This document shows positions 34,944 through 44,883 of a stretch of 64,000 bases of DNA, piece after piece (within the stretch, counting starts at the first letter, position 1; the number at the start of each line of letters is the position of its first letter). This DNA comes from Candidatus Bathyarchaeota archaeon. GTDB taxonomy: Archaea; Thermoproteota; Bathyarchaeia; TCS64. Made by a program: the position numbers and the translations under genes. Location: positions 434,208-498,207 of the forward strand of contig CAVYVF010000002.1 of NCBI GenBank assembly GCA_963771885.1, given 5' to 3'. Below the pieces are notes generated by a model. That model saw only the letters and a program-made list of their open reading frames with translations. It did no database searches and had not been told where the DNA came from.

Positions 34944-35952
34944 ATGGAGCTAGTCAAGCCGAGGCGCCTATCTGTCGGAGCCAGGGTGCGAGTCATCGCA
35001 CCAGCTAGTAGCATGGACATCCTCGACACAGGCGCCGTCAAGAGGGGCGTAGAGAACCTGGAGAAGATCGGGCTTAGGGTCGAGATAAGTCCTCACGCGA
35101 CGCGTCGGCATGGTCATGCCTCTGGGAACTCCTGAGGAGAGGGCAGCCAGTCTCATGAGCGCCTTCAAAGACAAGAGCATCGAGGGAATAATCTGCGCCT
35201 GGGGAGGCTGGAACTCAAGCGACGTCATAGACCTCCTCGACTACCCGGTTATACGAAGTAATCCCAAGGTCTTCATCGGCTACAGCGACATAACCACCCT
35301 TAACGTCGCCCTGCTCGAGAAGGCTGGGCTCGTCAATTTCCAGGGGCCTGCTCTTATCACGTGGACGCACCAACACCTCATGGACTGGGAGGTCGAGGAC
35401 TTCAAGAGGGCGACGATGACTACTGCCGTCCCACGCATACTCGAGGCAGCACCCACCTACATCGACGACCCATACTACTGGCAGCACCCAGAGAAGGCGC
35501 CTCAACCAGTCGCCAACCCCGGCTGGAAGACTTATAGGGATGGTATAGTCGAGGGGACGCTCATCGGCGGGCACCTCGGCACGCTGCTCTCCCTCGCGGG
35601 CACAGATTACTGGCCGGAGCTAGAGGGAAGGATACTCTTCATCGAGGAGGATGAGGAGGGAGGCCCGACGGGCAGGATAGCGCGCGAGATGAGGCAGTTA
35701 AAGCAGACAGGCGCCTTCGGTGAGATCGCGGGGCTTATGGTTGGGAGGATCCCCACCGTGGCTGGTCTGAAGGAGGGCGACTCGCTGGATATGATCCTGG
35801 ATGAGTGCCTTGGGGGGTATGAGTTCCCGGTCGTGACTGGGGTGGATGTGGGTCACACAAATCCGATAGCCAGTGTCCCGGTAGGTATACGAGCGAGACT
35901 GGACGCTTTGGATAAGAAGTTAACCTACCTCGAGTCCGGGGTTGAGGATTAA
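34944..35952 (+). CDS. S66 peptidase (LD-carboxypeptidase/MccF family), apparent frameshift ~35125
   Basis: VIAPASS N-terminus, then GGWNS, FIGYSDIT, ILFIEE, DVGHT. Confidence 0.87.
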
Positions 35953-36045
35953 TACATTCTCAATAATTTGAGACAATCCGATCTATATTGGGTTATTCTT
36001 ATTTCTTGAGAGAATAACCTTTTACGTTGATACAATTATAGTTAA

Positions 36046-36420
36046 AAGGTGCCGTAGCCGCGGGCAACGGGCTTCCAAGGAACAGTAAGGCTGCGCTCTC
36101 TACTTGCCCAAGGGGGAGGCCGCCCCAACGGTAACGCGGAACGACGTTTGACGCGGCGCGGCTCCTTACTTCTAAAGCCCCGATGACATACGGATAAAAC
36201 CCCCACCCCGCATACTAATGGCGATAACGCGCAATACAGTTGCGTGTTAGAAACCATTGTTGACTGTGATCAGTTAAAAATAGGGGATTCTACAATAAGC
36301 CTCTGACGGTTCATCATAACGACACCTAACACGAAACAATGAGGGGTCTCCACTGGTTCAGTTTCAAGTGGGAAGCAAACAGTGTACGATGGATTGGTAA
36401 CACAGAATCTATATAGGTAC
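36046..36420 (+). ncRNA. candidate large structured non-coding RNA, family unknown
   Basis: Many complementary stems whose non-Watson-Crick pairs are mostly G-U on the + strand; promoter-like AATAACCTTTTAC at 36013-36025; no credible ORF. Confidence 0.55.
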
Positions 36421-36500
36421 GAGAATATGCTAGCCAAAAAAAATCTGCGGTCGATAAGATAAATCTAAATCACACTCGCAACCAACGATTATCGACAGCA

Positions 36501-37589
36501 TTGTTCGACAAAGAATCCATGAAGCTCATGAAGGAGATGATGGAGGCCTTCGGTCCAAGCGGCTTCGAGAGAGAGGTTAACAAATTATTCAAGAAGCACA
36601 TGACACCCTACGCGGACGAGGTCATACAGGATAAGCTCGGCTCGGTCGGCTTCGTCGCAAAGGGCACGAGTGACCGCCCACGCGTCCTCGTCACGGGGCA
36701 CACCGATGAGGTCGGCTTCATAATCTCGAGCCTTACCGATGAGGGCTACCTGACTTTCAACCAGCTCGGCGGCTGGTTCGACCAGGTGCTCCTCGGGCAG
36801 CGCGTCGTCATCAGAGGCAGCAAGGGCGACGTTCATGGCATCATCGCGAGCAAGCCGCCCCACGTCCTCTCTGAGGAGGAGAGGAAGAAGGTCGTTGAGA
36901 AGAAGGATATGTTCATCGACGTCGGTGCCACGAGTAGGCAGGAGGCGGAGGAGTGCGGGCTCAAGGTTGGCGATCCCGTCGTCCCGTACAGTATGTTTGA
37001 GGTTATTCAGAATGGCAAGGTCGCGATGGGCAAGGCGTTCGACGACCGCATTGGCGCCTTCGTCTTCGCTGAGGCTATGAAGAGGATGAAGAAGCAGAAG
37101 ATGACGCACCCTAACACCCTATACGGTGTAGCCACCGTCCAGGAGGAGGTGGGACTCAGGGGCGCACAGACCATAGCGCACGTCGTTGACCCAGACGTCG
37201 CCATAATCCTCGAGGTCGATATCGCCGGCGACGTTCCCGGAATAAAGCCGCAGGATGCGCAGGCCAAGATGGGGAAGGGTCCGAGCATGCTCACCTTCGA
37301 CGCGGGCATGATCCCGAACCAGCCGCTGAAGGAGTTTGTGATCGAGGTGGCGAGGCAGAGCCAGATCCCACTCCAGCTAAGCCAGATGAAGGGCGGCAGA
37401 ACGGACGGCGCCCCCATACACATGAGCAGGGCGGGCTGCCCCACCGTCGTCATAAGCGTCCCCACGCGCCACATACACAGCCACAGCGGGATGCTCAGCC
37501 TCAAGGACACCGAGAACACGGTTAGGCTCGTCATGGAGCTCGTCAAGAGGCTTGACGCGAAGACCGTCGAGGGATTCACCGCCCTCTAG
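36501..37589 (+). CDS. M42 family (TET) aminopeptidase
   Basis: GPSGFE, GHTDEVG, KAFDDRIG, QEEVGLRGA, GRTDG, RHIHS. Confidence 0.92.
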   Translation: MFDKESMKLMKEMMEAFGPSGFEREVNKLFKKHMTPYADEVIQDKLGSVGFVAKGTSDRPRVLVTGHTDEVGFIISSLTDEGYLTFNQLGGWFDQVLLGQRVVIRGSKGDVHGIIASKPPHVLSEEERKKVVEKKDMFIDVGATSRQEAEECGLKVGDPVVPYSMFEVIQNGKVAMGKAFDDRIGAFVFAEAMKRMKKQKMTHPNTLYGVATVQEEVGLRGAQTIAHVVDPDVAIILEVDIAGDVPGIKPQDAQAKMGKGPSMLTFDAGMIPNQPLKEFVIEVARQSQIPLQLSQMKGGRTDGAPIHMSRAGCPTVVISVPTRHIHSHSGMLSLKDTENTVRLVMELVKRLDAKTVEGFTAL

Positions 37590-41170: not shown

Positions 41171-41421
41171 CTACTGCAATATTTGACTAATATATTTAAG
41201 CCTGAACCCGGATCCGCTGTTTTTGTCTCTGGAAACGAGGATTAGGCGATGTTTTTCACTACGTTTCCTGAAACATGGTTTTCGTCGTCCCGATTGTATA
41301 TGAGGGGTTGACCATACTTCTCCACATTTTCCTCCAACGCCGTCTCCAGGTTCTTTTTTACATGCCTTAGGCTACGCGCACCCATTTTGTAAGATTTATA
41401 TGCGGAGGGGGGTGTGGCTAT

Positions 41422-41515
41422 GGACAGAGGGGAGCTGGGTTAAGGCCCGGCTGAGAGGACGGTAATCGTCGACCCTAGGAACCTGATCCGGGTAATGCCG
41501 GCGTAGGGAGGTGCG
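41422..41515 (+). promoter_or_regulatory. TPP riboswitch 1
   Basis: GGGGAG-P3-CTGAGA...GACCC..GAACCTGATCCGGGTAATGCCGGCGTAGGGA matches the TPP aptamer consensus; TATA-like TTTATA at ~41395. Confidence 0.92.
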
Positions 41516-41562
41516 CGTTATCGTCAACCTGCCAAGCGGTTGACGCCTGCATCCCCTCTAGG

Positions 41563-44221: not shown

Positions 44222-44265
44222 CAAGGAGTTAGGTAAGTTTTATTAGCCCGCCCAAGCCCATACGA

Positions 44266-44356
44266 GGCGAAGGGGAGCTGGGCGAAAGCCCGGCTGAGAG
44301 GACGAAAGTCGTCGACCCTAGGAACCTGATCCGGGTAATACCGGCGAAGGGATGTG
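44266..44356 (+). promoter_or_regulatory. TPP riboswitch 2
   Basis: GGGGAG-GGGCGAAAGCCC-CTGAGA...GACCC..GAACCTGATCCGGGTAATACCGGCGAAGGGA; TATA-like TTTTATTA at ~44238. Confidence 0.92.
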
Positions 44357-44358
44357 TC

Positions 44359-44883
44359 ATGAGCGGTAACGGTACAAGGACGAATACCAGGGAACTGGCA
44401 GAGATATCCGTAACCGTGGCACTATCCGTTGTCCTAAACTACATAAAGATCTACCAGCTCCCGTGGGGTGGCTCCATCACCCTAGGAAGCATGGTACCGA
44501 TCATGCTGCTCGCCTACAGGCGCGGGCCGAAAGTCGGGATCATGGCTGGGATAGTCTTCGGCCTGGTCCAGATGGCTCTGGAGGGGTACATCTACTACCC
44601 TGTCCAGATCATCCTCGACTACCCGCTTGCCTTCGCGTGTCTGGGACTCGCGGGCCTATTCAAGAAGCAGCCCCTTATCGGCGTCGTGGTCGCGTTGACC
44701 GGCCGATTCCTCTCACACTTCATTAGTGGTGTCGTATTCTTCGCAGAGTATGCCCCACCTGATTTAGGACCGTATGTTTACAGCGCGATATACAATGGCA
44801 GCTACATACTCGGGGAGATGGTGATCAGCGGCATCATCATCTACCTGTTATGGAAACGGGCGCCACAGTTGTTTAATGTTTAG
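44359..44883 (+). CDS. thiT: energy-coupled thiamine transporter S component ThiT
   Basis: LPWGGSITLGSMVPI..AYRRG, QIILDYPLAF, RFLSHFISGVVFFAEYAP, YSAIYNGSY; TPP riboswitch upstream. Confidence 0.9.
   Translation: MSGNGTRTNTRELAEISVTVALSVVLNYIKIYQLPWGGSITLGSMVPIMLLAYRRGPKVGIMAGIVFGLVQMALEGYIYYPVQIILDYPLAFACLGLAGLFKKQPLIGVVVALTGRFLSHFISGVVFFAEYAPPDLGPYVYSAIYNGSYILGEMVISGIIIYLLWKRAPQLFNV

Follow-up and report, generated by a model that had tools for sequence, protein, structure and literature searches.

A conserved rod-shaped RNA candidate behind a palindromic promoter box in a family of Bathyarchaeia

The gap between an S66 peptidase gene and an M42 aminopeptidase gene in a genome of Bathyarchaeia contains a conserved structured element of about 118 nt that folds as one irregular rod. 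It lies at 36048-36165 on the plus strand of the window, by which is meant the whole stretch of 64,000 nucleotides that was analysed. Sequence comparison shows it to be a real and apparently undescribed structured RNA family without a catalogued relative. Its best explanation, to which we give about an even chance, would be an independent small RNA, switched by the box that also precedes smc, ftsZ and gins-mcm, and acting in trans through a protein bound at its internal loops. A well-supported structured RNA family is thereby added for an abundant uncultured archaeal group, and the promoter box common to smc, ftsZ and gins-mcm provides a functional handle of a kind that is rare among orphan RNAs.

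Fold and covariation of the rod

The rod comprises an outer stem, a pair of 4-bp helices set between 3x3 loops, a conserved core and a variable apical hairpin, located as follows.

36048..36165 (+): rod-shaped structured RNA candidate, with inferred ends
36069..36091 (+): 5′ strand of the conserved core, with GGCU, GGAAC, RGUAA and GG as invariant columns
36092..36121 (+): apical stem-loop, whose length varies between homologues (about 10-50 nt)
36122..36145 (+): 3′ strand of the conserved core, with CCC, AC, GGYAAC and GAC as invariant columns

This single irregular rod is the RNAalifold consensus of 15 loci and also forms the 5′ domain in the window's own minimum-energy fold. Covariation, one of the checks proposed in the preliminary description of the region, was assessed with 41 distinct sequences, aligned by MAFFT without fitting to the structure, the 18 core pairs being taken from the RNAalifold consensus of 15 of those loci. 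In this alignment 96% of the cells of the core pairs are paired, and compensatory changes on both sides occur in 9 of the 18. None of 500 shuffles matches the covariation of the rod, and pairing with slid partners drops to 34-56%. As the relatives in the alignment are not independent of one another, the result is strong but does not translate into a probability. The same pairing and covariation are found in 52 distinct metagenome sequences, here in an alignment fitted to the model, and one pair adjoining the core occurs as C-G, U-A, A-U and G-C.

Throughout the rod the letters of the loops are invariant and those of the helices swap, which looks like the pattern of a binding surface and not that of an antisense RNA. 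Each core strand reads AAC-RG-YAA, giving a pseudo-two-fold arrangement with loops that are purine-rich on the plus strand, and a GGC/CGA 3x3 loop is present twice in the rod. A small ORF within the rod was considered and rejected, since the lengths of the model matches fall in all three frames.

The preliminary description had envisaged a large non-coding RNA of about 370 nt. All of the stems that it listed occur in the sequence near the places it gave and pair in the window. Comparison with homologues reduces the proposal to an element of only about 118 nt: the conserved and covarying part is confined to the rod, and the 250 nt on its 3′ side have no shared fold. The supposed junction of three hairpins gives way to another structure, as its small hairpins decay outside the genus and the conserved fold uses the same bases in other pairings. 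A helix thought to close the ends forms 8 of its 9 pairs in the window, and the enclosing helices decay outside the genus (17 homologous loci). Of the 10 pairs of the 3′ hairpin 36225/36240, all form in the window and 9 in the closest relative, but only 1-6 in any of the remaining 16 loci. In folding energy, the 375 nt of 36046..36420 surpass shuffled sequences by a small margin (z -1.38, with 10 of 100 shuffles equally good), and 36040-36330 gives z -1.93. BLAST against 101 related genomes found the region in 21, chiefly its first 200 nt, and in 18 aligned loci a conserved block at about 36048-36165 is followed by a drifting 3′ part.

Distribution and gene neighbourhood

Covariance models, as a search for homologues that the preliminary description had called for, match 47 of the 71 genomes of the family, whose name we take to be TCS64. 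The two models used, R1 and R3, agree on these 47 genomes and detect a single copy in each. By genus (labels g1 to g12), copies occur in 17/17 genomes of g1, 23/32 of g8, 3/5 of g5, 1/1 of g2, 1/1 of g7 and 1/5 of g12; neither model finds one in g10 (0/4), g11 (0/1), g3, g4, g6 or g9. Eight of the nine g8 genomes without a match also have no orthologous M42 match, so the locus is probably unassembled there.

Outside the family, R1 and R3 found no copy in class samples (151 genomes) or a phylum sample (151), in searches that score only 22-26 candidates per genome. An exact pattern run on 185,579 species genomes gave 42 loci, which by title belong to Bathyarchaeia or Bathyarchaeota (39), an uncultured archaeon (1) and bacteria (2). 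Metagenomes gave 67 loci with the exact pattern, all passing R3 and with the same kinds of neighbours as in genomes. A looser pattern, applied to viral contigs, matched 120 loci in 27 of the 64 parts of the collection, and none of the 100 tested passes E 0.2. Short matches to the core elsewhere in the genome are at chance level, lie inside genes and were discarded.

The core is eroded in three genomes, namely G021 (beside rpl14e), G024 and G025 (both at the trmI-M42 locus with the box intact). Decay forms in which the rod is kept and the core deleted or eroded lie at L147:600-700 (-), L358:520-660 (-) and L361:1745-1885 (+). Absence from g10, g11 and four of five g12 genomes, together with core erosion in three genomes, indicates that the RNA is dispensable; on these comparisons it appears to be under selection in most of the family all the same.

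The neighbours of the rod in the window are the following.

34944..35952 (+): gene of an S66 peptidase, divided between two frames in the assembly used
36501..37589 (+): M42 aminopeptidase gene (PF05343, E 3e-95), outside the RNA

In relatives, S66 is one ORF of 333-341 aa, and its split here is a frameshift or an assembly error. In 41 of the 47 copies, the rod has trmI or S66 on one side and M42, on the same strand as the rod, on the other; 38 of these were identified by script, and the other three are at contig ends and have S66 upstream. Five further copies point towards the end of rpl14e and are preceded by a KaiC-like, TrmB or ArsR gene; the last one lies elsewhere.

Predicted promoter and palindromic box

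Upstream of the rod, two adjoining elements have been recognized.

35993..36017 (no strand assigned): palindromic box, consensus TTRYTCTCA ... AGARTAR, 25-bp variant
36018..36027 (+): TATA-like element, the predicted promoter of the RNA, abutted by the box

The promoter claimed in the preliminary description, a word at 36013-36025, holds up as a predicted plus-strand promoter, with a TATA at fixed spacing; what had been missed is that this word forms the right arm of a palindrome, the box. In form, the TTTTA at 36020 matches what stands ahead of the SRP RNA gene and several tRNA genes in the same genome. From the TATA to the invariant GGCT of the RNA the distance is 50 nt in 32 of 38 loci and 47-51 nt in all 38, and this fixed spacing places the start at the first paired base (about 36048).

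We infer the box to be the binding site of a dimeric transcription factor. It is present in all 40 trmI/M42-type loci having upstream sequence. The 6 copies outside this locus have neither the box nor a clear TATA, so that control by the box is not family-wide. A matrix of two half-sites detects 6 box sites in this genome but not one when the genome is reversed; searched as a pattern in 40 family genomes, the box gives 76 strand matches, spread over 32 of them (palindromic sites counting twice), against 4 for the reversed pattern. Outside the family the pattern is near background and falls mostly inside genes. Box sites include G000:C2:226875, G000:C22:100641 and G000:C22:354201, and loci L380-L429, L444 and L445.

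Fifty-two box loci were examined, comprising 30 from the pattern search, 20 hand-picked non-RNA sites and 2 from another search. The box stands before the gene of an 83-aa protein in 15, smc in 11, the RNA in 7, ftsZ in 5, gins-mcm in 3 and other genes in 11; these labels rest on short protein words, and Pfam confirms one each of smc, ftsZ, gins and gins-mcm. Before the RNA and gins, the box has a common 25-bp form abutting the TATA, while before smc, ftsZ and the 83-aa gene it is 23 bp long and farther upstream. In the window's genome, a box lies about 190 nt before smc and another before the 83-aa gene; no box was found before gins, and no match to ftsZ, which indicates that the regulon varies. 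The motif is thus common to division, segregation and replication genes, and seems to outline a family-specific, apparently undescribed archaeal cell-cycle regulon. As the RNA stands behind the same box as these chromosome and cell-division genes, joint switching of the RNA and the genes is likely.

One half of the box also occurs in another RNA family, 49 nt upstream of the copies at G000:C2:169323 and 172638 (-) and beside their TATA, and a further copy of that family has no half box.

Strand of the element and the 3′ spacer

Two further features lie between the rod and the promoter region of M42.

36184..36201 (no strand assigned): TGACA...ATAAAAC motif, TATA-like on either strand, kept in g1, g8 and g9
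36202..36457 (no strand assigned): spacer whose length is conserved, with short A/T motifs at intervals and without a common RNA fold

The spacer is probably regulatory DNA outside the RNA. Its 3′ part gives almost no consensus fold in 12 g1 loci (-3.6 kcal/mol, covariation term -0.01) and no consensus pair in 12 g8 loci. Across two genera the sequence of 36184-36457 drifts while its length (about 320-345 nt from the rod to the M42 start) and its A/T motifs are kept, and the region looks like an array of protein sites. The motif at 36184-36201 could be a second promoter or an antisense promoter.

The latter possibility is the basis of a competing interpretation, in which the opposite strand would be functional, transcribed from the TATA-like part of the motif (36193-36201), with 36202-36457 as its upstream control region. 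In the rpl14e context, such an RNA would be co-directional with the ribosomal protein operon. This interpretation draws on the conservation of the motif in the three genera, on a TATA-like word at a fitting distance in some rpl14e-type loci, and on C/U variation in the core that keeps the pair only on the minus strand. Ribosum-scored RNAalifold also slightly prefers the minus strand (-35.8 vs -34.2 and -38.4 vs -36.6). Against this, the default RNAalifold scoring favours the plus strand (-12.6 vs -10.7 and -12.7 vs -5.0), the loops are purine-rich on that strand, and the 18 pairs, which were chosen on the plus strand, contain 51 G-U against 18 A-C there. The preliminary description had read the plus strand from G-U pairs; the excess stands, with the ribosum result as a counterweight. 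Promoter geometry adds to the plus-strand case: the TATA on that side keeps one distance in 32 of 38 loci and is abutted by the box, as before gins, whereas the downstream motif lies at a variable distance from the rod (27-37 nt in 39 of 40). Single-sequence z-scores are alike on both strands (-1.50 and -1.32, for 60 of 95 sequences). A single RNA run (6% of words) covers parts of both flanking genes and not the element, and is uninformative either way. Covariation of the outermost stem was dropped as a sign of the minus strand, because those ends pair with each other. On the sum of these comparisons the functional strand is quite likely the plus strand, and a functional opposite strand is unlikely.

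Alternatives arising from the genomic context

A cis-acting 3′ element of the upstream transcript, serving as a stabiliser or as a processing or termination signal without a free RNA, would account for the same-strand gene found upstream in most loci. In the rpl14e context, the rod even lies about 20-130 nt past the stop codon of the KaiC-like or TrmB gene with no clear TATA between. However, the upstream gene differs from locus to locus (S66, trmI, KaiC-like, TrmB or a divergent ArsR), and in 40 loci the box and TATA stand between it and the rod, which makes this proposal improbable.

Slightly less probable still is an element that acts as DNA, be it as an origin of replication, a site of recombination or a hairpin of single-stranded DNA, proteins binding at the box and at the spaced motifs. 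It would fit the single copy, the conserved length of the spacer with its periodic A/T motifs, the link of the box to replication and segregation genes, and the fact that neither cdc6 gene is preceded by a long intergenic region. Yet the cdc6 genes are about 200 kb off or on another contig, neither a cluster of the origin-box-like words used nor a skew turn was found here, and the rod moves without the spacer and keeps its G-U pairs. The origin of the lineage is not obvious: at L169 (G000:C2 about 265800-265875) a word resembling the canonical origin recognition box lies just upstream of cdc6, with no long intergenic region.

The 5′ leader or riboswitch of M42, an alternative already raised in the preliminary description, now appears very improbable. 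In its favour are the 41 of 47 copies at the trmI/S66-M42 locus on the M42 strand and a symmetric core that could hold a ligand. However, about 330 nt without shared structure separate the rod from the start codon, M42 is present in 61 of the 71 family genomes, and the gene has a promoter-like word of its own whether or not the RNA is present.

36458..36470 (+): predicted promoter belonging to M42 itself, with a similar word in relatives

Evidence on this point comes from 18 M42 loci, all from genomes without a model match at M42. The promoter-like word stands about 30-45 nt before M42 in most of them, and in 16 of the 18 genomes the gap before M42 is short, with trmI usually directly upstream. 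A short gap and a retained promoter word in the absence of the RNA identify the RNA as an insert with its own signals and not as an M42 leader. A riboswitch or 5′ leader class in general was rejected on the same ground and because 6 of the 47 copies, all away from this locus, have no same-strand gene directly downstream.

Comparison with known RNA families

The Rfam check proposed earlier was carried out with Rfam 15 and gave no gathering-level match on the element, in the window or at 16 homologous loci; all that overlaps, and weakly, is a miRNA model, which falls on the 3′ hairpin at E 9.9. The preliminary description was right to set SRP RNA, RNase P RNA and tmRNA aside. The SRP RNA (RF01857) and RNase P RNA (RF00373) genes of this genome lie on another contig, at G000:C23:4201-4512 and G000:C23:455651-455945, and ARAGORN calls no tRNA or tmRNA in the region. 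The element has no SRP helix-8 motif, and its local alignment to the genome's SRP RNA is no better than with shuffles; nor does the rod give an RF00373 match with the P4 conserved regions of RNase P RNA. A Y RNA was rejected, as was a TROVE protein as partner, since PF05731 (Ro60/TROVE) is unmatched in the window's genome (92% complete).

Likeness to known RNAs is of a general kind. Archaeal SRP RNA (RF01857) and small SRP (4.5S) RNA are also rods with internal loops, and 4.5S RNA is a rod of similar length; the element differs in the missing helix-8 motif and in its variable apical loop. Bacterial 6S RNA and decoy RNAs of the CsrB/GlmY type are protein-binding RNAs, and the resemblance to them is one of possible working only: a stand-alone rod with paired ends, conserved central loops and a putative protein site. 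The present rod is shorter than these, archaeal, without an Rfam match and restricted to one family.

A modification guide of the H/ACA or C/D type, or an antisense RNA, is suggested by a hairpin with a large conserved internal loop and by a k-turn-like GA/GA arrangement (consensus letters) in 46 of 77 sequences, but is the most improbable of the readings considered, as the rod alignment has neither box C/D nor a conserved ACA tail, no bipartite match of the plus-strand loop strands to the genome's 16S/23S rRNA was found, the window's copy does not have the k-turn A, and no Rfam snoRNA matches. The longer rRNA-complementary words of the rod involve mainly stems or variable parts. The co-change from GA/GA to AA/GC seen among the sequences fits a tandem non-canonical pair better than a k-turn.

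In titles and abstract openings of the literature, no description of the rod RNA or of the box was found. The word 'Bathy' is absent from the main text of a 2026 preprint on clustering of the intergenic DNA of all prokaryotes (bioRxiv 10.64898/2026.10.21.760802), whose supplements may include the element without a name.

Proposed mode of action and relation to archaeal cell-cycle regulons

Invariant loops within swapping helices, and the finding of no guide-like match between the plus-strand loops and rRNA, point to protein binding. The preferred reading is an independent small RNA acting in trans; its independence from neighbouring genes is supported by the different gene neighbourhoods of its copies and by the promoter-like word that M42 retains where the RNA is missing. 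In such a mechanism, a dimeric factor at the box beside the TATA would set transcription from about 36048, and the same factor would also control smc, ftsZ and gins-mcm. The RNA would fold into a stable rod with paired ends, in which the outer stem and apical loop would only keep the core in shape. The pseudo-two-fold purine-rich loops of the core would be read by a probably dimeric protein, and the RNA may either sequester this protein as a decoy or serve as its scaffold. A more specific version, which must be considered unlikely, is that of an RNA timer: the RNA would be made in step with the transcripts of smc, ftsZ and gins-mcm, and its symmetric core would titrate a cell-cycle protein that acts as a dimer. 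That protein could be the factor that binds the box or the 83-aa protein under the same control. If true, this would amount to RNA-based timing of archaeal replication or division.

Co-occurrence gave no partner protein among the candidates examined (KaiC-like, 83-aa and TROVE). The KaiC-like protein was rejected because it occurs in 22 of 71 genomes and is absent from the window's genome. The 83-aa protein was likewise rejected as RNA partner, its gene being present in 65 of the 71 genomes of the family, among them some that have no copy of the RNA; it is often in several copies and often behind the box. This lysine-rich, highly conserved protein, encoded for example at L167:2423-2674 (+) and G000:C22:100316-100567 (-), matches no Pfam family and only unnamed Atlas clusters. 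Its structure is predicted with confidence as helix-strand-helix-strand-strand (pLDDT 88.5). Foldseek gives no match to this model at E 0.001, the best rows, at E 0.25-0.46, being ribosomal chains and an R3H domain. It is perhaps a nucleic-acid-binding or chromatin protein.

Comparable regulons have been described in other archaea. According to a study of Haloferax volcanii, the CdrS regulon includes ftsZ, smc is down on cdrS-ftsZ2 repression, and the regulon contains an RNA gene, HVO_1885s, described as of unknown function, whose start is preceded at a distance of about 41-43 nt by a symmetric factor site (PMC8406309). The likeness to the present case lies in an RNA gene behind a symmetric upstream site, with ftsZ in the regulon. 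Binding and down-regulation were measured for HVO_1885s (PMC8406309), whereas here the regulon is deduced from a common box. In Sulfolobales, another report describes aCcr1 binding to AGTATTA before division and replication genes (PMC9976892). A promoter motif common to ftsZ, smc and gins recalls both systems (PMC8406309, PMC9976892), but the box is a palindrome of 23-25 bp that occurs in a single family of Bathyarchaeia and differs from the aCcr1 motif given there (PMC9976892). Judged by its motif, the box regulon would seem to be a third regulon of the archaeal cell cycle, next to those of CdrS and aCcr1. Since CdrS of Haloferax also controls an RNA, small RNAs may recur in archaeal cell-cycle control.

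Elsewhere in the window, two TPP riboswitches (RF00059, above gathering score) lie within 3 kb of each other in this archaeal genome, at 41418-41527 and 44261-44370.
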